DNA from: an uncultured Gammaproteobacteria bacterium
GTDB lineage: Bacteria; Pseudomonadota; Gammaproteobacteria; CAWCPV01
Assembly (NCBI GenBank): GCA_963797555.1
Contig: CAWCPV010000003.1
Span: forward strand, 320,001 to 384,000
Length of the DNA stretch: 64,000 nt
Reading direction: 5' to 3'
In this document: positions 5,332 to 34,210 of the stretch, piece by piece
Layout: the number at the start of each line of letters is the position of its first letter
Numbering within the stretch: the first letter of the stretch is position 1
Notes under the pieces: model-generated
Seen by the model: the letters and a program-made list of their open reading frames with translations, nothing else
What the model was told of the DNA's origin: nothing
Databases searched by the model: none
Made by a program: the position numbers and the translations under genes

Positions 5332-5352
5332 CGCGTTTTGAGGGTCTAACCA

Positions 5353-5581: not shown

Positions 5582-5726
5582 CCATGGCCGCCGATCGCCG
5601 CTACACCCCGCCTCCACCGCAGGCAGACCGCCGCCGCCCTGGACCGCCACCGGAGCGGCCCCGGCACCGCTCCGAACGGTTGCCGCGCGTGCCGACACCG
5701 GCGCTGAAGAAGAAAGGGCGCATGTC

Positions 5727-7934: not shown

Positions 7935-7947
7935 TGGAGGTGCAACG

Positions 7948-8367
7948 ATGAAGACGTTTCCAAAGTTCGATGCTGCGAAGCAGGGGTTACCAGCGTGGTT
8001 CGTCTATCAGACCGAGCCGCTGGATTTTTTCTTTGGGTTGTCGAGCCTGGAGCATGCCGCGAAGGACGCGCTTGCGATGGATGATGGCTATGGGCGCGAG
8101 AGATTGATGACCTCGCTGGTGAAGCAGGCCATGGAGGCCGCTTATGTGGTCTCCAAGGCGAAGGGTTCCTATTGGGAAGGAGACATTCGGGCGAGTGAGT
8201 TGTACGTTTTCGGAATACCGGACCCGGAGAACCATGGTGTGCGGCATGGATTCATCTGGAAACAGGACAACAACGGTACGACGTTCATCGTGAGTCCCGT
8301 ACAGATTCCTTGGCTAGAGGATAGCCTGTTGGTGGAGCAGCCACGCACCGGGACAGCCGGCGCATGA
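7948..8367 (+). CDS. Hypothetical protein
   Basis: GGAGG RBS, protein-like composition, operonic. Confidence 0.75.
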   Translation: MKTFPKFDAAKQGLPAWFVYQTEPLDFFFGLSSLEHAAKDALAMDDGYGRERLMTSLVKQAMEAAYVVSKAKGSYWEGDIRASELYVFGIPDPENHGVRHGFIWKQDNNGTTFIVSPVQIPWLEDSLLVEQPRTGTAGA

Positions 8368-8392
8368 CGTTCAACACGAGAGGGCAACCGAC

Positions 8393-8872
8393 ATGACGAA
8401 GAAGGACAAGACAGCCGTTCACAAAAAAGCGCGGGATGTGCGAATCGGCGGGCCGATCGCCCCAATGATTGTGGCGCTTGAGTGTGATCCTACGGGGGAC
8501 AATTGGCGCGTTTGCGGTGTGTGCGGCCGGGACATGAAAGACGACTACGGGGTGGTTGCTGAGGCCAAGCGAACGCTCTGGGATGCCGATGATTTTGTGG
8601 TGTGCGAGCATTGCATCAAGGATGGCGATGTGCCGGAGAAGCTCATAAAGCGCGCCAAAGCTCTGGAAGACAAAGCCGCAGATCTGCGAAATCTGGCCGG
8701 CCGAATAGTGGTCCCGAGCTTCGAGGATTGGCAGCGTGCGAATTATCGGCACGACGCCGCGTTCTGCCGAGCGCGCGGGTATCCCGTGGAGACGTTCGAG
8801 GAATGGATCGCGAGGCGGGAGAAGATCAAGGAGGAAAAAGAGCCCGTGGACGATCACACGGGAGCGATGTAG
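8393..8872 (+). CDS. Hypothetical protein with CxxC...CxxC
   Basis: GAGGG RBS; CGVC and CEHC. Confidence 0.7.
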   Translation: MTKKDKTAVHKKARDVRIGGPIAPMIVALECDPTGDNWRVCGVCGRDMKDDYGVVAEAKRTLWDADDFVVCEHCIKDGDVPEKLIKRAKALEDKAADLRNLAGRIVVPSFEDWQRANYRHDAAFCRARGYPVETFEEWIARREKIKEEKEPVDDHTGAM

Positions 8873-8958
8873 TTCGTGAGTGACAGACCTTCGAGGAGTA
8901 TTGCGAGGGGCGGTGGGAAATGAGCCGAGTTAATGCCAGAGATCGGAGAGGGTTGGAG

Positions 8959-9120
8959 CACTTGTCTTATCATTCGACAAGTGTTTGTTGCAAAATGTTA
9001 CCAATTGGTAACACTTCTTCATGGTGCCGTGAAGAAGTTAGGAGCGCCAGATTGCCGAAGCGGATGGGACGGTGAGGCACCAAACAGTCATGCGGTCTAC
9101 TGTTACAAATGTAACAGTAG
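8959..9120. repeat. Cluster of three unrelated palindromes
   Basis: CACTTGTC-N9-GACAAGTG (8959-8983), TGTTACCAATTGGTAACA (8996-9013), CTACTGTTACA-AA-TGTAACAGTAG (9097-9120). Confidence 0.9.
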
Positions 9121-9156
9121 CGGTTCTGACTTATTCTGTGACCAGAGAGATCTTCA

Positions 9157-9219
9157 AAAGGTACTCCCGGCCTTCCCCAATTGCGGCGGCCAAGCCCGCG
9201 GAATCTCGCTAGCGTAACG
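9157..9219 (+). promoter_or_regulatory. Lambda-like cos (cosQ/cosN-like) packaging site candidate
   Basis: AGGTACT...TTGCG-GCGGCCAAGCC-CGCGG..TCGCTA directly before terS; conserved at 30725-30787. Confidence 0.6.
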
Positions 9220-9240
9220 TCCCCCTAGAGGGTTCCTTCC

Positions 9241-9798
9241 TTGGGAAAGTTGGTTAATAAGCGAGCATTGGCGGAGATTTTCGACATCAGCGAGCGGACG
9301 ATTACCGGGCTGTTGAAGCTCGGGTTGCCCATCGAGAAGCGCGCTGTTCGAGGCCGTCCGCACGTGTTCGACACGGCGCACGTGGTTGCTTGGTTGATCG
9401 AGCGTGAGGCCGCCAAGCATAAACCCAGCAGCAGCAACGGCGATGGGCGGCGCCTGGATTTGGATCAGGAACGAGCCATGCTCGCAGCCGCTGATCGCGC
9501 GTTGAAGGAACAAACCCTGCGCGCGCGGTCTGGCGAGCTTGTTTCCGCATCCTGGGTGCGGACTTCCGCTCGAGCGCTCTGTGGAACCGTTCGCGAGCGG
9601 TTCGAGGTCCTGCCGGATAGACTGTCTGCAATTCTCGCGGCCGAGAGCGACGAGCGCAAGATTTATGATCTGATGGCACGCGAGATACGCTTTGTGCTAG
9701 GTGAACTCGCTGAGGGTTCGAAAGCTTTCGGAGGTTCCGATGATGTTGAAAAGACTGAGCCCACTATGGACAGCGACGGCGCGGATCGTCCCGCCTGA
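9241..9798 (+). CDS. terS: Terminase small subunit, lambda Nu1-like
   Basis: VNKRALAEIFDISERTI..GLP...FDTAHVVAW, DLDQERA and GELV motifs. Confidence 0.85.
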   Translation: MGKLVNKRALAEIFDISERTITGLLKLGLPIEKRAVRGRPHVFDTAHVVAWLIEREAAKHKPSSSNGDGRRLDLDQERAMLAAADRALKEQTLRARSGELVSASWVRTSARALCGTVRERFEVLPDRLSAILAAESDERKIYDLMAREIRFVLGELAEGSKAFGGSDDVEKTEPTMDSDGADRPA

Positions 9799-9981
9799 GC
9801 ACCACGAAAAACTCCGCGCGCTGTTCGAGGTAATGGAAGAGCGCCTTGACGTAGAGTTGGATCTAACCGTCGCTCTCGTCGCAAAACAGGCGATAGCCGA
9901 TACCTTGGACGCTATACGAGCCGGATTCAGCGCGGGATTCGCACCACCACCACCACCGAAACACTGATAGGAGATCGCACC

Positions 9982-10194
9982 ATGCCAAAACTCGAATTAC
10001 TCGCCGAACTGTGGACGTGCATTGCGCCAAGGCTCAAGAAGGCGGACCTGGACGAAGCCCACGCTTCGTTCGTTCGCGTCGAGGCCGAGCTGGCCGCCCG
10101 GCTCTCTGCCCTGTTGGCGGGTGCGGTCAACGTCGAGGCCGGCGCCAAGCCTCCACCGAGGCCACCGACCGCCTCACCGGTTCCGCGAGCGTAA
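9982..10194 (+). CDS. Small hypothetical protein
   Basis: GGAG RBS; homologous to 31416-31622 in E2. Confidence 0.6.
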   Translation: MPKLELLAELWTCIAPRLKKADLDEAHASFVRVEAELAARLSALLAGAVNVEAGAKPPPRPPTASPVPRA

Positions 10195-10294
10195 TACGGG
10201 AAGATCCGCGGATGTCGGGCGATGGCCATCAGCATCCGGATCGGTTCCGCCAACGTTGGCGGAACCATCATCCTACGCCCGCGGGACTAGCGCC

Positions 10295-10861
10295 ATGAGC
10301 CGCGATCGCCTCCACCGGCTTCTGACGCTGGCCGAGCGTTCCGATCCGGCGTTGCACGCGTGGTTCCGGGACGCGCTCGCCCGTTGGGAACACGGGCTCG
10401 CCATGGAGCAGGCCCTGGAGCTCCGAGGCGGTTCGGCCAGGGCGCTGCGCGACGCTGGCATCCGGCGCCTGGCTGAGCTGCTGGATTCGGACGGACGGCA
10501 CTCGAGGTGGCATACCGCGGGGCTGGTGGAGCGGGCGCTCGCTCGCCGGCACACCACCGGGGAGATCGGCGTACTGGTGGAGCAGATCATCCGATCGGGT
10601 TGCAGCGTGGTTCCGAAGCGGCGGCAGATCTGGTCCGTCTTGGGGGTGCGCGAGGAGGCGCAGGCGGCAGAGCGGCAGGGGGTGAGTCAGCAGACACTCA
10701 GTCGGGATTTACTCAAAAACAGTGTCATGACTCCAAAAGTTGGTAAACCTCGCCGGGTGAGTCAGCGGACGGTTAGGCGAGATATGGACAAAAACAGTGT
10801 CATGACTCCAAAAGTGTCCAAACCTCGCCAGCGCATCATCTACCAGATCAGCCGGGGCTGA
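10295..10861 (+). CDS. Hypothetical helical protein with a C-terminal 25-aa tandem repeat
   Basis: N-terminus homologous to E2 ~31692-32066. Confidence 0.6.
   Translation: MSRDRLHRLLTLAERSDPALHAWFRDALARWEHGLAMEQALELRGGSARALRDAGIRRLAELLDSDGRHSRWHTAGLVERALARRHTTGEIGVLVEQIIRSGCSVVPKRRQIWSVLGVREEAQAAERQGVSQQTLSRDLLKNSVMTPKVGKPRRVSQRTVRRDMDKNSVMTPKVSKPRQRIIYQISRG
10680..10829 (+). repeat. Two imperfect 75-bp tandem repeats
   Basis: GGGTGAGTCAGC...CAAAAACAGTGTCATGACTCCAAAAGT...AAACCTCGCC at 10680 and 10755. Confidence 0.9.
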
Positions 10862-10941
10862 GGTTTCGCAATTCTCCCCATCGCGTTTGCAAACCGACCC
10901 TGTTTCAATAGAGCCTCAGAATTTATCGCGAGGCGCCGCCA

Positions 10942-12012
10942 ATGCCCATGCCGAAGAGCACATCCCGGTTAACGAAACCGATCGCATTCTCCCGCGGAGA
11001 CGTTCGAGCCGCGATGGGCGATTGGCTCGCGTTACGCGCAGGACTTGTGCGTGCTGAGGAGGCTGATCCAATAGCGCAGGAGCTGCTAGATCCCCTAGCG
11101 CCTGCGAACCTCGCGGACGTGGCTTGCCACCTGTCAGGCCGCGGCAGTGGCGTCACAGCGCACGAGGCGGCACGAGAGTTTCACAGCACCGATTTTAGCG
11201 ACGCGCTGGCGGTCGGGCTGTCCCAGGTGGCTGGCGTTTCTTATGCTCGGCAGGCCGCTGAACATTCCGTCATCGTCAAGGATCTCACGGTGCCGGATCT
11301 CAGGCCCGTCGCATTCCCTGTCATCGACGTGGGCGAACTCACCGAGACGCCGAATGCTGGCGGACCTATCGAGTTCGCTTCGACATTCGCGAATGATGGC
11401 GTATTTGGCGCCGCCAACGTTTTCTCGGCACGTTTCCTGATTCCGCGCCGTTTGCTCGTCAACGATGACGCTGGCGTTGTCACGTTGGCGGTCGCTCAGC
11501 TATCCGGACATGCTGCTCGTCTCGAGGCCCAGGCCATCGCTGCGATTCTCGCGAGCAACCCGAACTTGGGCGATTCCGCGGCACTGATCGACACCGGAAA
11601 CACCGCGAGCGGCGGCATTGCGAATGCCACGGGATTAGCCGCCGCGGCTGGACTCATGAGGACTCGAGTTACTTCTGGCGGGAATGTCGCGAATGTGCGC
11701 GCGCGCTTCTGGCTGGTTGCTGGCGATGCTGAGTTTGCCGCGCTGACGACCCTTGGCGGTATCTATTCGGGAGGCCCGCTGCGGATCGAGGTGGCCACAA
11801 ATGCGTGGCTTCCGGCTGCGACTGCGAGTTATTTACTGGCGTCTCCAGACGACGCTCCGACATTCGTTCGTTTGGGTTTGACTTCACCACCGAAGCCGAG
11901 CGTAATTCAACGTCGCGCACCGCCCGGTTTCGACGGATTGGCGTATGTGATTGAGCACGTTTTCGGAATTGCGGCTGTTTCTCGGGATGGACTTGTGAAG
12001 GTAACGGCATAA
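10942..12012 (+). CDS. Major capsid protein, Mu gpT-like/HK97-fold type, without a fused protease
   Basis: HSTDFSDAL, FSARFLIPRRLLVNDD, AARLEAQAIAAILASNPNLGD and FGIAAVSRDGLVK motifs recalled from gpT-like head proteins. Confidence 0.75.
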   Translation: MPMPKSTSRLTKPIAFSRGDVRAAMGDWLALRAGLVRAEEADPIAQELLDPLAPANLADVACHLSGRGSGVTAHEAAREFHSTDFSDALAVGLSQVAGVSYARQAAEHSVIVKDLTVPDLRPVAFPVIDVGELTETPNAGGPIEFASTFANDGVFGAANVFSARFLIPRRLLVNDDAGVVTLAVAQLSGHAARLEAQAIAAILASNPNLGDSAALIDTGNTASGGIANATGLAAAAGLMRTRVTSGGNVANVRARFWLVAGDAEFAALTTLGGIYSGGPLRIEVATNAWLPAATASYLLASPDDAPTFVRLGLTSPPKPSVIQRRAPPGFDGLAYVIEHVFGIAAVSRDGLVKVTA

Positions 12013-12017
12013 CGGAC

Positions 12018-12290
12018 ATGAGCAGTTTGACACGAGTTCAAGCCCTAGCCGCTGCTCGGAGTTTCCAGCGCCATTCCGGGATTTGCCGACGCTGCGCCAC
12101 TGCGGTGGCTGCCGAGCTTCGCGATTCTGCTCCCGGTATCCCGGCGATTGCCGTTTGCGAATCCGGCGCGGTTGTGGTGGGATTGTTCGCGATGTTGACC
12201 GTCGACGGGGCGTTGCTCGTGCAGCCCTTGGACGTGACCGAGCTGCCGCCCGACACGACGTTCTGCCCGGCGCCGGAGCGCGTTCAATGA
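12018..12290 (+). CDS. Conserved satellite hypothetical protein
   Basis: VQPLDVTELP.D.TFCPAP shared with E2 33190-33471. Confidence 0.7.
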   Translation: MSSLTRVQALAAARSFQRHSGICRRCATAVAAELRDSAPGIPAIAVCESGAVVVGLFAMLTVDGALLVQPLDVTELPPDTTFCPAPERVQ

Positions 12291-12490
12291 ACCGCTGGGT
12301 TTTATGTCGTCGCACCAACGGCGCCCTGCGGCTGGTGCGCGAGGTCACAGAGTCGGAAGGACGAGCAATGGCCGCCGCTGACTCCACCTTGACCTTGATG
12401 CCCAGGGATGAGGCGATCGCTCTCTGGCTGTCTAAGCCGCGGTCCCAGGCCACCGGGAAGATTGCGGACGTGCCCGGCCGCCGCCGCTGA
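12287..12490 (+). CDS. Conserved satellite hypothetical protein (MNRWVLCRR...)
   Basis: ATGA overlap; homologue at 33468 (PRERALALWLS versus PRDEAIALWLS). Confidence 0.6.
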   Translation: MNRWVLCRRTNGALRLVREVTESEGRAMAAADSTLTLMPRDEAIALWLSKPRSQATGKIADVPGRRR

Positions 12491-12553
12491 GCTGATTTTG
12501 CAGCACCCCGATCGGGACTCGTCCCCCCGATCGGGCTCACCTCTCCTGCATTT

Positions 12554-12580
12554 GCCCCGGCTAAGGTCGGGGCTTTTTTT
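12554..12580 (+). terminator. Rho-independent terminator of the capsid operon
   Basis: GCCCCGGC-TAAG-GTCGGGGC followed by T7. Confidence 0.8.
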
Positions 12581-12789
12581 GGGCGGTCGCCGCCATCGGG
12601 GAGCTACTCGGGGTGGACGTGCGGCAGGGGGAGCGGACGGACCTGGGTGGCACTGTCCCGCGCGCGGGACAGTTACCGCGGCAGACCGCATCGAAGTAAC
12701 CGCGCCATCATCGGGGAGCTGCTCGGGTTGGACGCCGTGCGCGGCAAACATACAGACCCAACATTGCGCGGCTGTGCAATGATACCGCC

Positions 12790-13146
12790 GAGCCACCGCC
12801 CGAACGATAAAACTTCACGGCGCCGTGAAGGCAGACCCCTCGCGCGCGGAAGCCACACCCCCTTGCTTAGTACAAAGCAAGGGGTCAACGGCAGACCCCT
12901 CGCGCGCGCGGAGCCACCTTCTGACCGTCCACCCGCGAAGCCTTGCGCTGGGCAGACCCCTCGCGCGCGCGGAGCCACCCTTTCAGGCCAGACTGCGGAC
13001 GGACGGCGAAAAGCAGACCCCTCGCGCGCGCGGAGCCACCCCAGCCATCCTTCCTCGACCAACTCCCGCGGAGGCAGGCGCGCGCGGAGCCACCCTTCCC
13101 ACAGGGTGCCGCTGCTCCGGTAGGTGAGCAGACCCCTCGCGCGCGC
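12790..13146 (-). CRISPR. Cas-less CRISPR-like mini-array, type I-E-like geometry, 6 spacers
   Basis: 28-bp repeat GCAGACCCCTCGCGCGCGCGGAGCCACC at 12891, 12952 and 13013, variants at 12831 and 13074, partial copies at both ends; unique 32-33 nt spacers; strand inferred from I-E resemblance. Confidence 0.8.
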
Positions 13147-13214
13147 TAGCACAAACATGCCATAATGATTGTCCTTGGTTTTTACTTTTACCGGACAGAG
13201 CGGAGAAGGGACTA

Positions 13215-13721
13215 ATGGCACATGCCGCGGCTGGCGTCGAGGCCACCATACGGGGATTTGGGAGCACACTGCACGGGGTCATGCATGCTCCTAACCTTGC
13301 CCTCTTGCGGAGCGTCGACCAGACTGTCGACAGTCTGGCGCGCGAGCAAGAGATAGTCGCTGGATTCGAGCAGATTGCCCGCGGAGCGCTGCAAGCGCTC
13401 AAGGATTGCCGGCCAAAGCGGGCGATCGACCTGGATGGCACGTTGTGCGAGCAGTTGTTGTCAGGCGAGACCGCCATGAAGGCCCGGATTGACGAGTGTC
13501 AGAAGAAAAGGCAAGCGGCGTTTGATGACCCGATGCTTCGCGGTGCGCATGAAAGTGCGGTTGTGTCGGAGTACGACCGCTCGATCGCCTTATGGCGCGG
13601 CCTTCACAATGCGACCGTCGAACTACGCTGGGCTGTGATGGAGTCTGATGCGGACATGGAAGCACCTGTGTCCGAAGAAGCTGAATCGTTGGAAGGCCTT
13701 ATCTCGTCTCTGAAGGCGTAA
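13215..13721 (+). CDS. Putative antitoxin/hypothetical helical protein
   Basis: RBS; ends 6 bp before the RelE-like gene; C-terminus AESLEGLISSLKA. Confidence 0.65.
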   Translation: MAHAAAGVEATIRGFGSTLHGVMHAPNLALLRSVDQTVDSLAREQEIVAGFEQIARGALQALKDCRPKRAIDLDGTLCEQLLSGETAMKARIDECQKKRQAAFDDPMLRGAHESAVVSEYDRSIALWRGLHNATVELRWAVMESDADMEAPVSEEAESLEGLISSLKA

Positions 13722-13727
13722 AGGTGC

Positions 13728-13997
13728 ATGGCCAAAACCCTAGGGGTCAAAGGGTTTAAGCCGTTACCGCGGTTCAAGCGACTCTTCAGGAAACTGGATC
13801 CAAGCGTTCAACAGCAGGTTAAAGATACGCTTGCTGACCTTCAGAAGAACCCCATCCCACCAGGGCGTAGAGTCAAGAAGATGGAGGGACACAAGGATGT
13901 GTGGGAGGCGAGGGTCAACGACAATTTTAGGCTGACCTTCAAGATAGAGGGGGATACTGCAATCCTTCGGAACGTCGGCACCCACGATATTTTGTAA
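13728..13997 (+). CDS. RelE/ParE-superfamily toxin
   Basis: RFKRLFRKL...VKKMEG..DVWEARVNDNFRLTF...LRNVGTHD. Confidence 0.85.
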   Translation: MAKTLGVKGFKPLPRFKRLFRKLDPSVQQQVKDTLADLQKNPIPPGRRVKKMEGHKDVWEARVNDNFRLTFKIEGDTAILRNVGTHDIL

Positions 13998-14146
13998 CAC
14001 CCATTCTGTAACACCGGCGTCGGTAGGCGCCGGGCTATTGGGACGCGGCACCGCCCCCACGATGGCGGGCGCAGGCGTCACAGGACGCCCCAGGCGTCGC
14101 GATCTCGGCCGACTCCATAGGGTGGTATCTCCCCCGGAAGCGCGGC

Positions 14147-14497
14147 TCACTGGTCCAGCTCGACCGCCTCGAATTTAATCCAGAACTCCCGCGTGTCGCC
14201 CTTCAGCCTCACCTGCATGAGGCCGGAGAACATCGCCGTGTCCACCTCATAGACCTGCTGGCCGTCCTTGAACACGATGCACCGGCCCGCCACGACCGCG
14301 ACCGTCAGCAGCTTCTTGAACGCCTCTAGGTCGTGATCACTCGCGAGCCGACCGAGCTTGTCATAGAGATCCCGGTCGACGCAGCCGACGTGCGAATCCC
14401 CCTTGATGTGGCCAGTCAGGGACGCCTGCACAGGCGCGATGCTCAGCAGCAGCCCGAACATCATCCCTAGGCATAGTGCGCCTTCTCTTTTGGTCAT
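14147..14497 (-). CDS. Exported hypothetical protein (cargo)
   Basis: Signal peptide ending PVQA; two Cys in the mature part. Confidence 0.75.
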   Translation of the reverse strand: MTKREGALCLGMMFGLLLSIAPVQASLTGHIKGDSHVGCVDRDLYDKLGRLASDHDLEAFKKLLTVAVVAGRCIVFKDGQQVYEVDTAMFSGLMQVRLKGDTREFWIKFEAVELDQ

Positions 14498-14664
14498 AAG
14501 CCACCCTACCCTGACCCCGCCCCCGCGCGGGGTTTTTGTGCCTGCCGACGCATCGTAACAGCACCGTAACGCGTTACGGGTAACGGTCGGTTGCGATGCA
14601 CTTACAGAGCACTTACGCCTGACCGTCGGCTTTTTCTCACCCTTGCCGAGACCCTTCTGGGAGT

Positions 14665-14739
14665 TGGTGGGCGATGCTGGGTTCGAACCAGCGACCCCTG
14701 CCGTGTGAAGGCAGTGCTCTCCCGCTGAGCTAATCGCCC
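14665..14739 (-). tRNA. tRNA-Val(CAC)
   Basis: Cloverleaf GGGCGATTAGCTCAG...CTGCC-TT-CAC-AC-GGCAG...TTCGAA...CCA. Confidence 0.97.
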
Positions 14740-14793: not shown

Positions 14794-16691
14794 TGTAGCG
14801 CCAAAGTCGTAATGTCCCCTTTGACCAAAGTCGTAATGTCCCCTTTTGGTACTCGAAGGGGGACGTATGGAAGAAGGGGTGATCACGATGAGCCGGCGAG
14901 AGTTGGAGCGACTTGAGGTGATGCAGCGGGTGGCGGGCAGGCGGATCAAACAGGGCGATGCGGCCCGCATGCTGGGGCTATCGGTTCGGCAGGTGAAGCG
15001 CCTAGTGTGTGCGTACCGGCAGGACGGGGCAGCGGGCTTGGTGAGCAAGCGCCGGGGTCGCCGGTCCCATCAGCGCATCCCGGAGGCGGAGAAGGCGCGT
15101 TGTCTTGCCATCGTCCAGTCTCAGTACCCCGACTTCGGCCCAACGCTTGGGGCTGAGTATCTGGCCCAGGCGCACGGGTTTCCCTACTCGGTGGAGACCC
15201 TGCGCGGCTGGATGTCTGAGGCCGGGCTGTGGCAACGAGGCCAAGCCAAGGCGAGCCGTCCCCATCCCCCGCGTGAGCAACGCCCTCGGCTGGGCGAGCT
15301 GATCCAGATCGAGGGCAGCCCGCACGACTGGTTCGAGGGCCGGGGGCCGCGCGTGAGCCTCATCGGCTTCATCGACGATGCCACCAGCCGGGTGATGGCC
15401 GCCCGCTTCGCACCGGTGGAGTCGAGCCGGGCTTACCTCAGTGTGCTCGCGGCGTATGTGCGCCGTCATGGGTGCCCAGTGGCCTTCTATAGCGCGCCGC
15501 CACTCCATCTTCACCAAACACGACCCGCAAGACCCCGAGCCCACCCAGTTCGAGCGCGCGCTGGGGAGCCTCGACATCGCCTCCATCCAGGCCCTCTCCC
15601 CGCAGGCCAAGGGGCGGGTGGAGCGGCTGTTCCAGACCCTTCAGGACCGCCTGGTCAAAGCACTGCGGATGGCACACATCCAGGACATCGACGCCGCCAA
15701 CGTCTTGCTCGACACTTACCTCGAGCGGCACAACGCGCGCTTCGCCGTCGCGCCCGCACCCCCGCAGGATACCCACCGGCCCTGGAGCGGCTCGGTCGCC
15801 GAGCTCTCCCACCTCTGCTCGCTGCAGCACGCGCGCACCCTCTCCAAGAACCTGGTGGTCAGCTTCAGGGGTCAGCGTTACATCCTCCAGACCCCGGCCC
15901 ACGCCCCGCGCTATGGCCTGCGGGGACGGCGCATCACCGTATGCGAGCACCCCGACGGCACCATCGAACTGCTCAACGGCACCGAGGTCCTGCCGTACAG
16001 AGTCTTCGATGAGCGCCGCGACGGGCCTGCCGACCGCAGCGTCGATGACAAGACGCTCAACCAACGGGTCGACCAGGCCATCGCCCGCCTCGCCCCGAGA
16101 ACGCCCCGGAAGCCCCCGGCAGATCACCCTTGGCGGCGACCCTTGCACCCCCATCCCAGACCAACCGCCACCAGCAAGAACTGCCCCTAACTCCCTGAGG
16201 TAAGCCCCCGGCTTTGCCGGGGGACTCACCGAGGTTTGACCTATACGACGGTCGTCGTGAATCTCCAATCTCCGCCAAGAGAAGGAGACGCACGATGAAA
16301 GAGTAGCAGAGTCTGAGCCACACGAAGTGGGACTGTAAGTACCATGTGATATTCATCCCGAAAGCGCAGGAAGAAGCGGATCTTCGGGGCGCTGCGCCGC
16401 CACCTGGGACAGATCTTCCACGAGTTGGCGGGCCACAAGGTGTCCACAGTCGGCTTGGATGAGGCGATGGTGAGGGCCTACATCCGGAACCAAGACCAAC
16501 AGGACGAGCGATACGAGATCAGCTAACGCTGGGGACATAGGTCCAGCCGCCTTGGGCGGCTCCCGGTGTTATGGCGCCTTTGAGGCGCTCACCCAATAAG
16601 CCCCCGGCTTCGCCGGGGGTGAGTTAACTCTCGCCTCAAGGGGACATCTCTACTTTGCAGAAAAAGGGGACATTTCTACTTTGGGTTGACA
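14794..16691 (+). mobile_element. IS1202-family (formerly ISNCY) element; transposase ~14868-16190, frameshifted
   Basis: TGT...ACA ends with internally repeated IR motifs; 15-bp TSD CGTGCCGCGAATGTG at 14779-14793 and 16692-16706; C-terminal KPPADHPWR. Confidence 0.85.
16191..16628 (+). mobile_element. IS200-type element with internally deleted tnpA, nested in the IS1202-like element
   Basis: Both subterminal hairpins; HTKWDCKYHV and VSTVGLDEAMVRAYIRNQ motifs joined by a deletion. Confidence 0.85.
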
Positions 16692-18552: not shown

Positions 18553-18990
18553 CCTCCCTGAGGTAAGCCCCCGGCTTTGCCGAGGGACTCACCGAGGTTT
18601 GACCTATACGACGGTCGTCGTGAATCTCCGATCTCCGCCAAGAGAAGGGGATCCACGATGAAAGAGCACCAGAGTCCGAGCCACACGAAGTGGGACTGTA
18701 AGTACCATGTGGTATTCATCCCGAAGCGCAGGAAGAAGCAGATCTTCGGGACGCTGCGCCGCCACCTGGGACGGATCTTCCACGGGTTAGCGGGCCACAA
18801 GGTGTCCACAGTCGGCTTGGATGAGGCGATGGTGAGGGCCTACATCCGGAACCAAGACCAACAGGACGAGCGATACGAGATCAGCTAACGCTGGGGACAT
18901 AGGTCCAGCCGCCTTGGGCGGCTCCCGGTGTTATGGCGCCTTTGAGGCGCTCACCCAATAAGCCCCCGGCTTCGCCGGGGGTGAGTTAAC
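18553..18990 (+). mobile_element. Second copy of the deleted IS200-type element
   Basis: Near-identical to 16191-16628 with the same deletion junction. Confidence 0.85.
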
Positions 18991-21539: not shown

Positions 21540-22170
21540 CCGGCAGCGGAACTTCACCGGAGAGAATTTTTGGGCGCGCGGGTACTTTGTGTCCACGGTC
21601 GGCTTAGATGAGGCGATGGTCAGGGCCTACATCCGGAACCAAGAGCAAGAGGACGAGCGCTACGATCAGCTAACGCTGGGGACATAGGTCCAGCCGCCTT
21701 GGGCGGCTCCCGGTGTTATGGCGCCTTTGAGGCGCTCACCCAATAAGCCCCCGGCTTCGCCGGGGGTGAGTTAACTGGGTCTCGCACCACAGCGCGACTC
21801 ACCGCTCCAGCCCTTTGATATACCCCACGACGTTGGACACCGCATACTTCGGCGGTATGTTCAGGCACATGTGCACGTGATCGGACATCAGGTGGCCTTC
21901 AACCACCTTCGAGTCCTTGTGGCCCGCCAACTCGTGGAAGATCTGTCCCAGGTGGCGGCGCAGCGCCCCGAAGATCCGCTTCTTCCTGCGCTTTCGGGAT
22001 GAATATCACATGGTACTTACAGACCCACTTCGTGTGGCTCAGACTCTGGTACTCTTTCATCGTGCGTCTCCTCCTCTTGGCGGAGATTGGAGATTCACGA
22101 CGACCGTCGTATAGGTCAAACCTCGGTGAGTCCCCCGGCAAAGCCGGGGGCTTACCTCGGGGAGTTAGCC
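21540..22170. mobile_element. Rearranged IS200 tnpA: 3' half on + (21540-21777) abutting 5' half on - (21778-22170)
   Basis: FWARGYFVSTVG on +; GHLMSDHVHMCLNIPPKY (HuH) on -; both end hairpins present. Confidence 0.8.
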
Positions 22171-26632: not shown

Positions 26633-26848
26633 ATGATGGACCACCGCAAGACCGGCGACCGTTTGACGCGTCGCCAAGCCGCTAGATACCTTGGGCTGAG
26701 CCCGCACACTCTGGAGGTGTGGGGAACGACTGGACGCTACAACCTGCCGTTCATCAAGGTCGGCCGAGTCGTGCAATATCGCATGGCAGACCTTGACGCC
26801 TTCCTGGAGCGCAGAACGAAGCGCTTCGACTCGGGCGAGGCTGCCTGA
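26633..26848 (+). CDS. AlpA/excisionase-like HTH protein
   Basis: LTRRQAARYLGLSPHTLEVW...LPFIKVGRVVQYRMADLDAFL. Confidence 0.9.
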   Translation: MMDHRKTGDRLTRRQAARYLGLSPHTLEVWGTTGRYNLPFIKVGRVVQYRMADLDAFLERRTKRFDSGEAA

Positions 26849-27224
26849 CCATGGCCGCCCCGAGATCGCGGGCAGGCCCCGGGCCCCAGAAACGAGACGC
26901 GGCCCCGGTGGGACGAGCACCGGTGAGGCGCGCAGGGAGAGCACAGACCAGACGAGACCCCGCCAGCATACCACAAAGGCCTGCGTCGCGTGCGAACGCC
27001 CGAGCCGTGCCCGGACGCCTCCTCTGTGCGGAGCACCAGCGTCGCGCTCACCAGGCTTCCGGGACGCTGCAGTGTGTGCGGAGACGCCACAGACCTCGAG
27101 AGCCGACTGTGCCAGCTCCACCTGCGCGAAGTTGGGGATGCCGCGGGATGGGCACCGCAGCGCGGCTGGAGCACAGCTACCACGAGCGAGACGACCACGA
27201 GGACCTGCCACGCTGGCTACAGCA

Positions 27225-27650
27225 TCTGCACGCTGATAGACCGTCTCGAAGGCGTCCGGGAGACCGGGCCCGGGCGCTGGATAGCACGCTGTCCGGCACA
27301 TGAGGACTAAGCTGCCGTCACTGAGCATCCGGGAGACCGCCGATGGCGTGATCTTGCTGCGATGCTTTGCCGGCTGCGACGTTAACGCTGTCGTCGCTGC
27401 CGTCGGGCTGGAGCTGTCCGCATCTCTTCCCGCCGCGACCGGCTAGCACTACCGAGGACCTCTGCCGAGGTCCCAACGCCCGAGCCTCACCCTGCGCGAA
27501 GCCGTCGCGCTCATCCGAGAGTCGACGCTCATCATCGTCATGGCTGCTGGCGAGATCGATGCTGGCCGTGAGATTAGCGCGGCTGACCGCGCCACGGTCC
27601 TGAAGGCTGGCGAGGATATTTTTCGCGTGCTGGGCGAGGTGGAGCCATGA
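27225..27650 (+). pseudogene. Primase zinc-binding-like protein with an in-frame stop at 27308
   Basis: LEGVRETGPGRWIARCPAHED*LPSLSIRE..DG.ILLRCFAGC. Confidence 0.75.
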
Positions 27651-29140
27651 GCCAGCGCGGCGAGACATTGGCCGACAAGGCGAGGCGGAAGCTGGACGAG
27701 GAGGAGCGGCGAAGGGCGAACGGTGGAGCGGCGGAGGATGCCAGCGGGATCACGGACAGCGACCTTGCGAACGCCTGCCGCCTGGCACGTGACCACGGGC
27801 AGGATCTGCGCTATACGCCCGAATGCGGATGGATGGTTTGGGACGAGCAACGCTGGGCAGCGGATGAAGCTGCCGCCATGCGCAGGGCCAAGGCCGCCGC
27901 CGTCGCCATATTGGACGAGATCAAGCATGCCGGCCCCGGCCAACAAAGCGACCTCTTCAAGTGGGCGCGCCGTTGCAGTCCGCCGAGCGGCTGCGCGCCA
28001 TGTTGTTCCTCGCGCAGATCCGAGTTGGGATCGGTGCCCGGTTCGGCGACTTCGACCGTGATCCGTGGTTGCTCGCCGTCGCGAACGGCACCGTGGATCT
28101 TCGCACTGGCAAGCTGCTGAAGCACCGGCGGAGAAGACCTTGATCGCGAAGCTGTGCCCTGTTGCCTACAGACCCGCAGGCCAAATGCCCGTCATGTGGG
28201 AGGCGTTCCTTCGCCGCGTCATGCCCAGCGACGAGATGATCGCCTACGTTCGTCGCGCCGTAGGGTATTCCTTTGACCGGCACCACCGGAGAGCAGGTTT
28301 TGTTCTTCTGCTACGGGCTTGGCGCGAACGGCAAGACCGTATTCCTGGAGACGGTCCAGGCCCTGCTAGGCGAGTACGGCCGCACCACACCCACCGAGAC
28401 GCTGATGATCAAGCAGGGCGGAAGTAGGGAATCGAAAATGACGTGGCGCGGCTGGCCGGCGCCCGGTTCGTTGCGGCGAATGAGACCGCGGACGGGAAGC
28501 TTCTGAACGAGTCGCGCATCAAGGACTTCACGGGCGGAGAACGCACAGCCCGACCGGTTTTTGAACCGGGAGTTCTTCGAGTTCCGTCCGCTGTTCAAGC
28601 TCTGGCTTCGAGGCAACCACCGCCCGCAGATCCGCGGCACAGACGAGGAGAATCTGGCGCCGCATCCACTTGATCCCCTTCGAGGTGCGCATCCCCCGAG
28701 TCGGATCGGGACCCCGAGCTGATCGACAAGCTCGCGGCCGAGCTGCCGGGCATCCTCGCTTGGGCCATCGAGGGCTGCCGGCTCTGGCAAACCGCCGGTG
28801 CTTCAGCCACCGGCGTGCGTGCGAGCGGCGACCACGGAATACCGGCGCGAGATAGAATCTATTGGGCGAGTTCCTGGAGGAGCGGTGCGTCTGCGGCCCG
28901 GACAAGCGATGCGTGGCTGGGGGATCTGTACGCCGCGTATCGGGAGTGGTGCGAGACCGCCGGACAACACCCTGTCAGTCAGATGCGGTTTGGAACCGCC
29001 ATCGCAGAGCGTGGCTTCAAGCGGGACAAGGACCGGCGCGGACGGAAAGATCTACGTCGGGATCGGCATTCTCTCGGGTGAGGAAACCCCCATGGCGGCG
29101 GTGAGGACCCCACCCCTGATGACGGACACGACGGACAGTT
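27647..29140 (+). pseudogene. P4-family (D5-like SF3) primase/helicase, multiple frameshifts
   Basis: TDSDLANACRL..HGQDLRY, VANGTVDLRTG, GLGANGKT and [15 protein letters not shown] motifs. Confidence 0.85.
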
Positions 29141-29227
29141 AAGACCACTTTTTCCGGATCCCCCTTATTCGAGCGACGTTGTAAAGCAGAACCCCGATAA
29201 AGTGGTCAAACCGTAGGTCGTGTCCGT
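29121..29227. promoter_or_regulatory. Candidate replication origin of E2
   Basis: Nested inverted repeats ACGGACACGAC/GTCGTGTCCGT and GACCACTTT/AAAGTGGTC at the helicase gene end. Confidence 0.45.
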
Positions 29228-29406
29228 GCGTTGAGAAATGAGTGACCCGGCTCAGATGACCACCTCGCGCGCTGTAGGGATTGCTCTAACTACGTTGGGA
29301 CAGCACGCTGTCGGGCGGAGGAGTACAGCGGCCGGCCGGACGAGCTGAAGGATTGTGCGAGCTTCGATGACCGCGGACCATCGCGGACCGACCTGAGGGA
29401 CGAGGC

Positions 29407-30365
29407 ATGACCAACGCCCTGACTCCACCGCCCGATCTCGCGGTCGTCATCGAGCGCTTGTTCCGTGGCGTCAACCGAGAGCGCATCGCCCCGAGAGCTG
29501 CTCCGCATCGTCCACCAGCTGCGGGACTACTGGCCGCTTGACGGTGAGTCAAGTCTATTACCAAGCCGTCGCGCAGCGGTTGCTTGTGAACCGTCTGAGC
29601 CGAGTACAAGCGGGTATCGATGCTCCTAACTATACTGCGCCGTGAGGACGTTTTGCCTTGGCGCGCCATCGAAGACCGAACCCGGCGCACCATCGACAAG
29701 CGCGGTGTGCCCGACCTGCAAGCGTTCGTGGAAGAGCAAATGGAGGATTTCATGGATTGGCGTTACTACCATCGCTGCCTCGTGCGGGATCAGGAAGTGT
29801 ACGTCGAGGTGGCCACGGAAAAGGATGCTCTGGCGCGGATCTTCGAGGAAGCGGTATGGCCTTATTGCGTGCGGCTCAACATCGTACGCGGTCAGGTTTC
29901 CGCTACGATGGTGCATGACATGGGCGAGCGCTTCGGGCGCGCAGTCATGAATGGGCCAGACGCCGATACTGCTCTACTTCGGGGATTTGGACGCTTCCGG
30001 GGTTTGCATCCCGCGCGCCTTGCGCGATAACCTGGAAGAGCACCACAGCGTTTCGGTAGATCTGCGCCGGCGTTGCGCTGACGCCGCAACAAGTGATCGA
30101 GCACGCGTTGCCAACGTCGATAGAGGCGGCAAAACGCACGGACCCGAACTACAAAGCCTGGGTCAGGGAATACGGCGATCAACAGCCGGTCGAACTGGAC
30201 GCGCTGCATCCTGAACTGATGACGCGGATCATTACCGACGCTCTGGAGAACACACTGGACATGACCACCATGGACGAGCAGCAGAAGATCGAGACCCGTG
30301 AGCGCGACATCCTGCGGACCATGCGGCGTAGCGTCGAGGACTTCCTTGGAGGCGCGGTTCCCTGA
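29407..30365 (+). pseudogene. Topo VI-A/Spo11-like Toprim protein, frameshifted
   Basis: VEVATEKDAL, RGQVS, ILLYFGDLDASG and VELDALHP motifs. Confidence 0.7.
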
Positions 30366-30379
30366 GGTGTTCCGTTATG

Positions 30380-30721
30380 GGTACTAGTACCAACATGCCC
30401 CACCGGACACAAAAAAGGTCCGCGTGCGGACCTTTTCCACTGACGCAGCACAATCCTGGGTTGGTGCGTGGTCAAAAAAAAAGATCCGCATGCGGATCTT
30501 TTTCCACCATCCCAACGCGCCGCAGAGTTCCGCCGCCAGACTGATGGCCAGGGCGTGGAAGGCTTGGTGTGCAGGGATGCGAGTGTTGCGCTGGGCACGC
30601 AAATTGCCCGAATATTCGGGCAATTTCGGCCTTCCCCTCTGCTCCCCCTGCACATCGCCAGACTGATGGCCATCGCCAAGCACCCGCGGCTCGCAGATCG
30701 GAACTCATGGTTCCGATTTGC
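30380..30721. repeat. Cluster of five palindromes
   Basis: GGTACTAGTACC (30380); AAAAGGTCCGC-GT-GCGGACCTTTT (30413); perfect 26-mers at 30478-30503 and 30601-30626; ATCGGAAC-N5-GTTCCGAT (30697). Confidence 0.9.
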
Positions 30722-30724
30722 CGC

Positions 30725-30787
30725 AAAGGTACTCCCAGCCCTCCCCAATTACGGCACCCAAGCCGGCAAAGAATGCCTAGCGTAACG
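30725..30787 (+). promoter_or_regulatory. Lambda-like cos candidate of E2
   Basis: AAAGGTACTCCC...CCCCAATTACGGCACCCAAGCC...CTAGCGTAACG, homologous to 9157-9219. Confidence 0.55.
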
Positions 30788-30810
30788 CCTTCAATAGGAC
30801 TTCATTCCCA

Positions 30811-31164
30811 ATGACCACCACCGGCAAATTCGTGACCCGCTCCGAGCTGGCCAAGATTTTTGGTGTGACCGAGCGCACGATTAGCGCCTGGGGACAGGAT
30901 GAATCGTTCCCTGTAACGCGGATCGGCGCCATCAAGAAACGACTGCAATTCGACACCAAGGAGGTCATCGACTGGTACGTGCAACGTGAGGTGGCAAAGC
31001 TCAGGCCGAACGGTAAATTATTAGACCCGGAGAACGAGCGGGCTTTGTTGTGGCGCGCCCAACGGCTTTACAACGAGAGGCGCACGGAGGACATTAACGC
31101 TGAGGTTGCCAGGCGCACCAGTTCGGCCATATTCACGGCTGCGCGAGTCGCCCGAGACCATTAG
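30811..31164 (+). CDS. terS: Terminase small subunit, Nu1-like (probably continues past a frameshift)
   Basis: VTRSELAKIFGVTERTISAW...FDTKEVIDWYV...LDPENERALL. Confidence 0.8.
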   Translation: MTTTGKFVTRSELAKIFGVTERTISAWGQDESFPVTRIGAIKKRLQFDTKEVIDWYVQREVAKLRPNGKLLDPENERALLWRAQRLYNERRTEDINAEVARRTSSAIFTAARVARDH

Positions 31165-32135
31165 AAAACTTACCGTTTCGTGTCTCTGCGGAGTTGCTTG
31201 GCAAGACCTCTCGGGAGATCGAGGATAGACTCATATCGGAGATTCACACGCTTTGTCCGAGCTGGTAGGGCGCGGCCGCTCGAATGAAGCATTACCCACC
31301 ACCACCACAAGGAGACCAGCAGATGTCAGCATAGAGACGGTTCTGACTTCAGAGCCCGAGCTTCGTGTAGGGATGGCGCGCGCGGATTCACTGCGATCGG
31401 ATATCGCCGCCGCGGGTGACCTTGCTGCGTTCGTTGTGGATCGAGATTGAGCCGCACGTGCGCAAGGCTGATATTCCTGCCGTGTTTGCGGCGTTTCAGG
31501 TCAGCCGAGGGCGAGTTGGCCGAGCGGATCTCAGCTCGTTGCTGGCGACGCCACGAACGCGGCCATCGGCGCCAAGCCTCCGCGAGGCCGCCGACGGCCT
31601 CACCGATACGCGATGTAGGTAGGGTGAGACTGCCGCCAATGTTGGCGCCAGATCGTCTGTGCCTGCTTGTTGCGCTCCTCCTTCTTCAGCAATGAGCCGC
31701 CAGCGCCTCGCCAGCTGGCTGAAACGCTGGCCGAGCGACACGATCTGGCGCTCGGGGAGTGGCTTCGTGAGTCGCTTGGCACGGTGCTGAAGGCGGGTGC
31801 TGACCTTGGATGTCGCGCGCTGGATCTGTCGTAGGATCTGCGCGCTCGTGCGGCTTCGGGACAGTGCACATCAGTCGCCTTGGCCGAGATCCGGTGGACC
31901 CGACCGGCGCGAGTTCGACGTGGGCTGTCGCCGGCATGGTCGTCGGCCGACTCTGCGATCGCCGTTCGAGCAGTCGGTGACGTTGGTGCAGGCCGTTTCT
32001 GCCGATCCTGGCCTTCGGGATGCCATGTTCCGACTTCGCGACGCCACGATATCTACGAGATACTGAAAAATCATCCGCGAACGATTGCAGCTCCGGGCGT
32101 GGTCCAATAGCGCATCGAGATAGAGGAGCAGACCG

Positions 32136-33193
32136 ATGCCAGAACCACGATTGACGAGACCGTTGCCGTTTTCCAGAGCCGATATTACGAGCGCGCTGGC
32201 TGATCTCCTTCTCCTTCGAGCCGGGCATGCGCTGCCGGACATCAACCCTGTCGCGGAGGCGCTGGCTGACGGATCGTGTACGCTGCTGGACGTTGCGGCT
32301 GCATCTGAGCGGGCGTTGGCTCCGGGCGCACCGTCACCGAGTCTGCCCGCCAGCTAACCACCTCCGACTTCGGCGAGGCGCTTGGCTGTCGCGTTGTCGC
32401 GGGTTTCCGCGATCAGTTACGGCAAACAGTCATCAGAGCATGGCGTGATTTGCCGGGACATTACAGCTCGGAACCTTCAGCCGATCAGTTTTCCCGAATT
32501 GGATCTGGGCGAGCTGACGTTCGTTCCGAAGAGCGGAGGGCCGATTGATATTTGCTCCAATTCTCGCCAGCGCGGGAGTTACCGGGGAGCCGCAGGTATT
32601 CGGAGCGCGTTTTCTGGTCTTCGCGCCAACTGTTGATCAACGATGATGCCGGTCTGATGACTTCGGCGACCGAGCAGTTGTCTGGACATGCGGCGCAGAA
32701 TGGAAGCGGCGCATGATTTCCGCTGTCATCGCAAGCGAATGCGAATTTGGCCGATGGCGCACCGCTGATCGGCGCGGGCAATACGGTATCGGGTGGAGTC
32801 GCCACGGTAACGGGTTTGGGTAATGCGGCTGCGAAGCTGCGGACGAACTGACGGGCGTCGGGAACGTCGGCAACGTATCAAGCCCTGCGTTTTGGATGGT
32901 CCCGGAGATTCCGAGATCGCAGCGGAGGCCACCGTGGCGAGTTTGTATGCTGGCGTTCCGGGCATTCAAGTTATTTGTAACCCGTGGCTGCCCAGCGGTG
33001 CATCCTACGTATTTGGAAGATCCGGCTGTGGCTCCGGTCATCGCTAGAATGGCGCTTGAACTTCCCGAATACTCCGAGCGTTTCCAGAGTTCGGACGCCA
33101 TTGGCATTATGATGGGCAGGCATTCCGATTCGAGTTCATTGTCGGGATTCAGGCCATTGGCCGAAGCTGGTATTTGCAAGGCGACTGGCATGA
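32136..33193 (+). pseudogene. Major capsid protein homologous to 10942-12012, multiple frameshifts
   Basis: RLTRPLPFSRADI..ALAD.L.LRAG matches E1; LLINDDAG and SGHAA segments. Confidence 0.75.
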
Positions 33194-33728
33194 GCCGTGA
33201 AACCATTGACCCGCACCCAAACCCGAGCCGCCGCGCGTTCATTCCAGCGCCAGTTCTGGGATTTGCCGCAAATGCGCCATTGCGGTTGCGGCCGAGCTTC
33301 GCGACTGCAGAGGCCGGTACTCCAGCTGATTGCCGTTTGCGGCTCTGGCGCGAGCCCACGGGACTTCTCGCGATGATGACCGGCGATGGGCTGCTGTTTG
33401 TGCAGCCGCTGGACGTGACCGAGTTACCCGTGGACGCGACGTTCTGCCCAGCACCGCAGGCCCTGCAGTGAGCCGCTACGTTGTCATGTGCCGCCTGGGT
33501 GGAGACCGCCTCCAATTCGTACGCGCGTGCCTCACCGAGGTCGAGGCCCGCACGTGGGCGTCGGAGTCGCCGGACCTGTTCGCTCTGCCGCGCGAGCGCG
33601 CACTGGCGCTCTGGCTGTCCGCGACGCAGAGGCACGACACCGGGGACCATCGGCCGCCGCTACTCGAAGCTTGCGCCGCCGCGCGCGGGCTCGACGTCAC
33701 CCGAGCGCGGATGCTCCTCTGCCCTTTC

Positions 33729-33758
33729 GCCCGGCCCTACCCTTGGCCGGGCTTTTTT
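33729..33758 (+). terminator. Rho-independent terminator of the capsid operon
   Basis: GCCCGGCC-N8-GGCCGGGC followed by T6. Confidence 0.8.
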
Positions 33759-33801
33759 CGGGCCGCCACTGCCATCCTTGCGGCACACCATTTTCCACAC
33801 A

Positions 33802-33999
33802 GTCTGGCCCGCGCGCGCGGGGAGCCACCGGCTGAATGGGACAACTTCACGCCGGCGTGAAGATCTCGGCCCGCGCGCGCGGGGAGCCACCATTGTCGGG
33901 ATGGCGCCGTCTGCGAATCCAACCCCGCGCGCGCGGCAGCCACCACTCCTCAGCCTGTGGAAAACGTTCCACAGGCTGGTCTGGCCCGCGCGCGCGGGG
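33802..33999 (-). CRISPR. Cas-less CRISPR-like mini-array, 4 repeats and 3 spacers (33, 25 and 34 nt)
   Basis: Repeat GTCTGGCCCGCGCGCGCGGGGAGCCACC at 33802, variants at ~33863 and 33917, partial at 33979. Confidence 0.7.
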
Positions 34000-34128
34000 T
34001 TTTTTGTGGGTGCCGGAGCATCGTAACAGCATCGTAATGAGCGTTACGGGCACAAACGGCCCGGTCCCTAGCACCGGCCTAGCACCCACCCCCACCGCAG
34101 ATTCCCGCACTCGCCGCAAACCCTTGTG

Positions 34129-34210
34129 TGCCCGGGGCCGGATTCGAACCGGCACGGCCGAAGCCAGAGGATTTTAAGTCCCCTGCGTCTACCCGTTCCG
34201 CCACCCGGGC
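34129..34210 (-). tRNA. tRNA-Leu(TAA), CCA not encoded
   Basis: GGGGA-CT-TAA-AA-TCCTC anticodon arm and long variable arm. Confidence 0.95.

Follow-up and report, generated by a model that had tools for sequence, protein, structure and literature searches.

Orphan I-E-like mini-arrays with palindromic spacers on two sister capsid-encoding islands of an uncultured gammaproteobacterium

Two orphan mini-arrays on sister islands

The window analyzed here, a 64,000-nucleotide (nt) stretch of the genome of an uncultured Gammaproteobacteria bacterium (contig 3:320001–384000; genome 5.35 Mb, 65% GC, 20 contigs), contains two colinear, diverged, phage-satellite-like islands, E1 (~5350–14580) and E2 (~26800–34050), that encode a capsid protein and a small terminase subunit (TerS), and that each carry a short CRISPR array toward one end. 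The colinear islands share 45–75% identity; blocks of E1 and E2 that can be aligned are 72–85% identical at the DNA level, and their proteins are 35–70% identical. The two arrays, and especially the spacer S1 that comes first in both, are the subject of this report.

The E1 array opens with an 8-nt remnant of the 3′ end of a repeat, the conserved handle (12790–12797, + strand), with no stem-loop before it, followed by S1 (12798–12830, + strand), whose last 18 nt (12813–12830) form a perfect palindrome; base 12830 can be assigned either to S1 or to the following repeat. The rest of this array (12831–13149, + strand) comprises repeats at 12830–12858, 12890–12918, 12951–12979, 13012–13040, 13073–13094 (degenerate), and 13127–13149 (degenerate at its 3′ end), and further spacers at 12859–12889 (with a hairpin), 12919–12950, 12980–13011, 13041–13072, and 13095–13126. 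In E2, an intact 28-nt repeat (33802–33829, + strand) precedes S1 (33830–33862, + strand), which likewise ends in a perfect 18-bp palindrome (33845–33862); the remainder (33863–34005, + strand) consists of a repeat (33863–33891), a spacer (33892–33922), a degenerate repeat (33923–33944), a third spacer (33945–33978), and a truncated repeat (33979–33999) followed by a T-run (34000–34005) that a terminator scan marks as terminator-like on the + strand. The E2 array lies where an earlier sequence-only reading of the window had placed it, and the reverse complement of 33802–33829 is the diverged repeat given there; the two further hairpin spacers that it described are also present, namely the second E1 spacer (hairpin 12859–12884; arm 10, loop 6) and the third E2 spacer (hairpin 33951–33978; arm 12, loop 4). 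In the predicted structure of the array RNA, the first and third E2 spacers form their hairpins in the centroid fold as well as in the minimum-energy fold.

Units repeat every 60–62 nt from start to start and the spacers measure 31–34 nt, which is the repeat/spacer organization of CRISPR arrays. Repeats of I-E arrays have a GC stem-loop and a short conserved 3′ end. The GC stem-loop is present in the E1/E2 repeat, which also gives a weak BLAST match (73%), in the opposite sense, to a cas-linked I-E array; no CRISPR-DR or other Rfam family scored above threshold. To the left of S1 in E1, the stretch from the terminator-like hairpin to the first spacer (12588–12797) contains a 115-nt direct duplication and fragments resembling decayed repeats, a hairpin (12648–12676) among them, and further units may formerly have been present here in E1.

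Both arrays are orphan, because their repeat is found nowhere else in the genome (≤6 substitutions), host arrays included, and because no cas genes lie nearby, matches to Cas1 and Cas6e being confined to other contigs. Elsewhere the host has five CRISPR loci, among them a 55-repeat I-E array on contig 9 with Cas6e and Cas1 beside it. A Cse1 model gave no match in the genome, a result of little weight given that the control recovered Cse1 in only 1 of 14 genomes.

The islands have the characters of mobile elements: a capsid protein of family PF25209, a Nu1-type TerS, primase-like genes, an adjacent tRNA gene, and several diverged copies in the genome; no helper phage was identified for them. 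E1 encodes the major capsid protein at 10942–12012 (+ strand) and the small terminase (PF07471, phrog_57) at 9241–9798 (+ strand), and its primase-like gene is in two pieces (5972–6532 and 6777–7934); the E2 counterpart of the capsid gene is spread over three frames (32133–33179). The split primase-like gene, the three-frame capsid gene, and split Cas1 matches elsewhere in the genome reflect either island decay or assembly indels (the assembly is 84.6% complete). The end of E1 adjoins a tRNA-Val gene (14665–14739, − strand) and that of E2 a tRNA-Leu gene (34128–34210, − strand).

The island family has further members immediately upstream of the window, on contig 6, and at other places in the genome. 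In every copy, the capsid module closes with two small conserved genes and then a terminator-like hairpin, and the DNA beyond varies. In E1, this hairpin with its T-run (12554–12580, + strand) marks the start of the array region, and the slot beyond holds the six-spacer array and a two-gene cassette (13215–13997, + strand) that has no counterpart in E2 and whose second gene (13728–13997) encodes a RelE/HigB/ParE-like toxin; in E2, the homologous hairpin and T-run (33729–33758, + strand) are followed by the three-spacer array. In the copy upstream of the window, all that the same slot retains is a remnant of the repeat end, and in the contig 6 copy it contains unrelated DNA. The arrays therefore occupy a cargo slot at the island end, since 57 nt on the tRNA side of E1 (14524–14580) match the DNA directly after the E2 array at 85%. 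A search with the capsid protein across 61 genomes found matches in two, one of them the genome of the window itself, and the same search of viral contigs returned three distant loci only.

The shared spacer and the palindrome content of the arrays

The two copies of S1 are identical at 25 of 33 positions without gaps, whereas the other 17 pairs of one E1 and one E2 spacer agree at 4–12 positions; the binomial probability of at least 25 matches in 33 is 4e-9, or 8e-8 over the 18 pairs. This count, obtained anew, agrees with the one that the sequence-only reading had given for 33830–33862 and 12798–12830. The differences fall at positions 2, 4, 8, 10, 11, 13, 23, and 26. Common descent best explains the shared spacer, as S1 fills equivalent slots in the syntenic arrays of the sister islands and, at 76% identity, is about as similar between them as the neighboring homologous DNA (72–75%).

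Changes within S1 are unevenly distributed. The arms of the terminal palindrome are identical at 14/14 positions, as against 8 changes in the 19 positions elsewhere (Fisher 0.005), and the two changes at the center of the palindrome are mirror partners, so that each version remains perfectly symmetric, as had been noticed from the sequence at the outset. The earlier reading would have been undermined had the shared spacer been a product of recent descent lacking covariation; descent did emerge, from the 76% identity and the common slot, and the lack of covariation did not, given the invariant arms (0/14) and the symmetric changes. Arm conservation, two mirror-image changes (the second of which is described below for a sister island), and related sites in control regions of the satellites together show that the island family keeps this palindrome under constraint.

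S1 is not the only self-complementary spacer. Perfect inverted repeats with arms of at least 8 nt are found in four of the nine E1 and E2 spacers (arms 9, 10, 9, and 12), a proportion that the sequence-only reading had judged unexpected for randomly acquired spacers, and the host spacers that it had proposed for comparison uphold this judgment. Among 192 spacers from six host arrays, the longest perfect arms range from 2 to 8 nt, with only two spacers reaching 8 and none reaching 9 (4/9 vs. 2/192, Fisher 2.7e-5; 4e-4 if the shared spacer is counted once). Over 5000 shuffles of the nine spacers, a mean of 0.019 spacers per shuffle had an arm of at least 8, and a canonical I-E array that is linked to cas genes on a Streptomyces plasmid has 16 spacers, none with an arm above 5. 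The excess recurs in five metagenomic mini-arrays that end their repeats in the same way (see below): two of their 16 spacers have arms of at least 8 (15 and 12), with three more at 6–7, and 5/16 reach 6 as compared with 11/192 host spacers (Fisher 0.004).

Related palindromes, spacer origins, and metagenomic relatives

A third copy of the S1 palindrome, matching that of E1 S1 at 16/18 positions, lies at 9017–9034, in the 370-bp gap upstream of E1 terS; the likeness is restricted to the palindrome and does not extend to the remaining spacer. Random palindromes of the same half-site composition average 0.34 sites with ≤2 mismatches in the 5.35-Mb genome, so a copy within the 9-kb E1 is unexpected (~6e-4, an arithmetic estimate). 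Within this gap (8990–9130), three palindromes follow one another (9000–9017, 9014–9037, and 9098–9121), the first and third sharing a half-site, and all three fold in the predicted RNA. In this arrangement they resemble the dyad-symmetric activator sites of P2/P4-type late promoters. Just upstream of them, an open reading frame (ORF; 8393–8872) encodes two Cys pairs.

The sister island upstream of the window contains a near-palindrome (contig 3:313914–313931) whose minus strand matches the 3′ 24 nt of E2 S1 at 20/24 positions; as at 9017–9034, the likeness is partial only. This match runs 5–6 nt past the palindrome and carries a mirror-image T:A to C:G change plus one broken pair. The site is intergenic and is followed by palindromes of the type found next to 9017. 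A relaxed scan of the genome gave 30 S1-like sites, four of them in the ~28 kb of three islands, that is, two besides the S1 copies, vs. ~0.14 expected. As to the two roles that the earlier reading had offered for the palindromes, operator-like targets on the one hand and stored binding sites or structured RNAs on the other, the palindromes in satellite control regions would fit either. Three sister islands have a palindrome at one fixed position, just past a small conserved gene, and its sequence differs from island to island (window 10230–10260 and 31630–31660; contig 3:313914–313935), and such a variable dyad at a fixed place resembles immunity or specificity sites.

The sixth E1 spacer (13095–13126) is plainly gene-derived, matching four Y1_Tnp (PF01797) genes of this genome at 30/32 positions and a fifth more weakly. 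The five copies of these transposase genes, of IS200-like/REP-associated type (REP, repetitive extragenic palindromic), are at contig 3:778774–779475, 781118–781906 (2 kb from the preceding copy), and 414691–415404, contig 4:653575–654285, and contig 16:~118490–119743. That the palindromic spacers might themselves be REP/IS200-type hairpins of these transposases was considered and found unsupported, there being no similar hairpin in the genome. The sixth E1 spacer is the only one of the nine for which derivation from other DNA could be established: the other eight have no match at E ≤0.01 in phages, plasmids, or the genome. The proposal of the sequence-only reading to map the palindromes onto phage genes came to nothing, with no protospacer in 50,697 phage records (best E 0.1). 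The hairpins of the second E1 and third E2 spacers have no relatives in the genome, no spacer of either array matches the islands themselves over more than 12 nt (the region upstream of the toxin cassette included), and host spacers do not match the satellites.

Metagenomes were scanned for two adjacent copies of the 3′ half of the repeat, yielding eight loci that reduce to five non-redundant arrays, all of them mini-arrays of 2–7 repeats. All five share the 8-nt repeat end GAGCCACC, and the other repeat flank varies from array to array. One belongs to a conjugative element, where a coupling-protein gene and parB/parA flank it and a relaxase, TrbL, and an integrase are nearby; no cas gene was detected among the ten neighboring proteins scanned. 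In three of the four arrays with upstream flank, a palindrome with arms of 11–14 nt lies ≤45 nt before the first repeat, and one array has an additional arm-12 palindrome directly after its last repeat. Two of the upstream palindromes are homologous (locus L155, ~4465–4498; locus L156, ~2079–2112) and differ at 4 of 34 positions, which read as mirror-image pairs; both remain palindromic, one as a perfect 28-mer and the other as 11-nt arms around a 6-nt center. Except for this leader pair, the metagenomic palindromes have no second copies in their own contigs.

Other collections yielded no further arrays. Among IMG/VR viral contigs, the two-repeat pattern was absent and a single-repeat pattern gave 12 single matches and no arrays; the E2 repeat–spacer–repeat unit had only short single matches in 401 genomes of the class (best foreign E 4.7e-4) and no arrays; and at least 120 stretches of genome contigs contain three spaced 7-nt copies of the repeat end, with those screened all being tandem repeats of coding type and none I-E-like. 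Four related IMG/VR contigs (L027, L031, L032, and L033) contain one repeat 3′ half with the 8-nt end, in intergenic DNA before a terminator-like hairpin, which may be a solitary repeat unit.

Possible origins and functions of the arrays

The reading that we favor, tentatively and at slightly under even confidence, is that E1 and E2 carry inherited orphan mini-arrays of I-E-like type, with palindromic spacers taken from control sites of related elements and guides that strike those relatives. The two arrays descend from one ancestral array and lie in the variable slot, in the order capsid module, terminator, array, and tRNA-side end. The conserved core of S1 is one of a few related palindromic cis-elements that lie in intergenic control regions of the satellites, S1 itself most likely having begun as a spacer from the control site of a related satellite; more generally, rival mobile elements would be the source, through their hairpins or operator-type sites, of the spacers in arrays with the GAGCCACC end. 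We infer that the array is transcribed, with the + strand the more likely, that a Cas6e-type enzyme supplied in trans cuts the transcript, and that the resulting guides, once loaded, direct an I-E-type Cascade to the control DNA of relatives, the carrier's own copy being spared because it has diverged. This reading needs the fewest extra assumptions and follows the known case of virus-borne mini-arrays (PMC6858448).

Several observations weigh against it. If the + strand is transcribed, the poorly conserved part of S1 (9/15) would become the seed and the conserved part would lie at the far end, a pattern unlike that of a conserved guide. In all six spacers with arms of at least 8 (five independent), the palindrome directly abuts a spacer end, and target choice alone does not predict such placement. 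The palindromic spacers lack a full or near-full protospacer in the genome, the 50,697 phage and 72,556 plasmid records, and the retrieved loci; no common protospacer-adjacent motif is apparent in the DNA that flanks the related sites or the transposase matches; and the two related sites (9017–9034 and that of the sister island) do not occupy corresponding positions in their islands. That these arrays use the host Cascade can only be presumed, because the 3′ end of the E1/E2 repeat differs from that of the host I-E repeat, although the stem-loop is of the same type, and no cas-linked array with a GAGCCACC repeat end was found among the matches listed. The sample is also small, at 24 independent spacers.

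The conservation of S1 lends itself to another explanation, possible if on the unlikely side, by which S1 is now a cis-acting operator rather than a guide, so that a dimeric regulator, encoded by the satellite or by its helper, would bind both the palindrome at the array head and its relative in the late or packaging control region, and the array would be switched on and off along with the packaging genes. This would account for the palindrome being the only conserved part (0/14 changes in the arms, 8/19 in the rest) with a symmetric central change, and for the second symmetric change in the sister-island site. It is also consistent with the setting of the palindromes: in E1 and the sister island, the S1-like palindrome is within ~100 nt of other palindromes of shared type in regulatory-looking regions, the E1 palindrome comes immediately before the first intact repeat, and arm 11–14 palindromes stand ≤45 nt before the first repeat in three of four metagenomic arrays, two being homologous with symmetric differences, and the AT-rich centers of these palindromes can be read by eye as −10 elements. 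However, the unit in E2 is of exact spacer length and is enclosed by two complete repeats, the control region of E2 itself lacks a partner site, and palindromes in internal slots (the second spacer of E1, the third of E2, and the fifth and third of metagenomic arrays) cannot all be operators of an array promoter; moreover, a promoter scan found no promoter-like site near either array, and no candidate regulator was identified. Rather unlikely, in turn, is a broader reading, namely a family of I-E mini-arrays confined to mobile elements, sharing the one 8-nt repeat end, and storing, both in spacer slots and at the array head, long perfect palindromes that are copies of operator-like sites. Two mechanisms are possible under such storage, with Cascade aimed at the regulatory switches of rivals or the array DNA itself binding and titrating regulators, and the end-flush palindromes would point to hairpin-defined prespacers and an unreported route of spacer capture. 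The flush placement (chance ~0.002 by a hand estimate) is likewise an argument for a bias in acquisition, by which hairpin, fold-back, or self-annealing single-stranded DNA arising in transfer, rolling-circle replication, or packaging is favored for integration, so that palindromes would be over-represented irrespective of function; only 3–6 nt lie on the other side of the palindrome in four of the six spacers, and the carriers are elements with single-stranded or packaged stages. Such a bias is improbable, given that arrays of the same cell, I-E included, do not display it, S1 has a 15-nt tail, no cas1–cas2 genes are linked to the arrays, and no published report of it was found.

The strand that is read bears on a further alternative, in which the arrays are transcribed from the − strand, S1 is an ordinary relic in the form of the oldest spacer at the trailer end, its hairpin is at most a terminator, and the palindrome excess is without function. 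The trailer-like left end, with the shared spacer there, unique spacers beyond, a decayed E1 repeat adjacent, and more repeat-like fragments left of S1, agrees with this, as do the E1 hairpin followed on the − strand by a T-rich, terminator-like tail and the pairing by BLAST of the + strand of the E2 unit with the antisense of the cas-linked I-E operon array of the Streptomyces plasmid. Nevertheless, the + strand is probably the transcribed one. Across all seven arrays, conservation is confined to the 8-nt end, which would befit a guide 5′ handle, and on the − strand it would be a dispensable 5′ flank, with the guide-handle part differing even between E1 and E2; the E2 − strand tail is T-poor, and its + strand ends in a hairpin plus T-run; the arrays come after the island genes; and the −10-like centers of the upstream palindromes belong to three metagenomic kin. 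To the right of the E1 array, an AT-rich stretch forms the region upstream of the toxin–antitoxin cassette and is not necessarily a leader. A relic would, in addition, leave unexplained the arm conservation, the excess in independent arrays, and the related sites in satellites, and is distinctly unlikely. Least probable is that the arrays make counter-defense RNAs, that is, decoys or regulators resembling CRISPR RNAs (crRNAs) that titrate Cas proteins or repress the cas operon of the host, with hairpin spacers rendering the complexes inert. Repeat-mimic RNAs have reportedly been described, which we count for this possibility together with the five CRISPR loci of the host. In its accessible text, one study describes mini-arrays of phages and plasmids, with 2–3 spacer-like units, that silence I-E cas promoters (10.1101/2024.10.29.618823). 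No E1 or E2 spacer, however, has a seed-plus match beyond chance to the 13-kb host I-E locus, and the repeat end differs from that of the host; nor did any anti-CRISPR gene come to light, though no search was aimed at one.

The guide-based reading that we favor has its closest published parallel in the mini-arrays of the Sulfolobales viruses SPV1 and SPV2, which occupy the same position in related viruses and hold spacers against each other, the orthologous site of the carrier being mutated (PMC6858448, accessible text). As in that case, the E1 and E2 arrays are short, lack cas genes, and occur at the same position in related mobile elements, host Cas proteins being presumed to act in trans. 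Unlike them, so far as that text goes, they are carried by bacterial capsid- and TerS-encoding islands beside tRNA genes, have a repeat end that is not that of the host array, share one unit rather than having undergone full turnover, show no reciprocal full matches, and contain many perfectly palindromic spacers, which it does not report. Orphan arrays are common on plasmids, where arrays mostly target other plasmids; these orphans are similarly short and frequent on conjugative elements, as is one metagenomic relative, and the accessible main text does not mention self-complementarity of spacers (PMC9071438). Degenerate repeats and mobile carriers are shared with regulatory crRNA-like mini-arrays and viral Cracr, which, as described in the accessible texts, have 2–3 spacer-like units, occur on phages and plasmids, sometimes beside toxin–antitoxin genes, and match promoter DNA in part (10.1101/2023.03.03.530964; 10.1101/2024.10.29.618823). 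E1 differs from Cracr in having six full-length spacers, one plainly gene-derived, and the spacers of both islands have only chance-level partial matches to the host cas locus. With canonical I-E arrays (host contig 9; the Streptomyces sp. S501 plasmid NZ_CP038146.1, next to cas3/casA/casB), they share 28–29 nt stem-loop repeats, spacers of about 32–33 nt, and the period of 60–62 nt, but they differ in having no adjacent cas genes, another repeat 3′ end, only 4–7 repeats, and palindromic spacers, where the controls have arms of at most 8 (2/192) and at most 5 (0/16).

Regulatory mini-arrays and orphan mini-arrays carried by mobile elements are already in print, and we found no report in the open literature (supplements aside) of spacers rich in palindromes, or of capsid-encoding satellites that carry such arrays. 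New here is that the GAGCCACC end marks mini-arrays on other metagenomic mobile elements, with long palindromes in their spacers and just before the first repeat; also new are the related palindromes in control regions of E1 and of a third sister island, and the 30/32 match of one ordinary spacer to Y1 transposase genes. If mini-arrays of mobile elements systematically hold the palindromic control sites of relatives, CRISPR guides would strike the few sequences that rivals cannot change, and palindrome-rich short arrays with a fixed repeat end would be a sequence signature for finding such weapons; were the palindromes copied operators, both strands of a dyad could be read by Cascade. If the shared unit is instead an operator, a CRISPR array would be wired into the late-gene control of a satellite. 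The arrays connect phage satellites with CRISPR-based conflict in a way that can be tested, and possibly provide a new class of substrate for spacer capture.

Two further observations follow. Spacer 18 of the host I-E array on contig 9 matches the chromosome at 32/32 (contig 3:928511–928542) and 31/32 (928370–928401) positions, within an ORF of 496 aa that has no Pfam match and lies between purD-like and phosphoribulokinase-like genes; this looks like self-targeting, in which case the I-E system would be inactive or inhibited, or the flank non-permissive. A repeat of ~128 bp is present in the window in four copies of ~91% identity and in both orientations (597–724, 16188–16315, 18559–18676, and 22040–22167), and may be a small non-autonomous mobile element.

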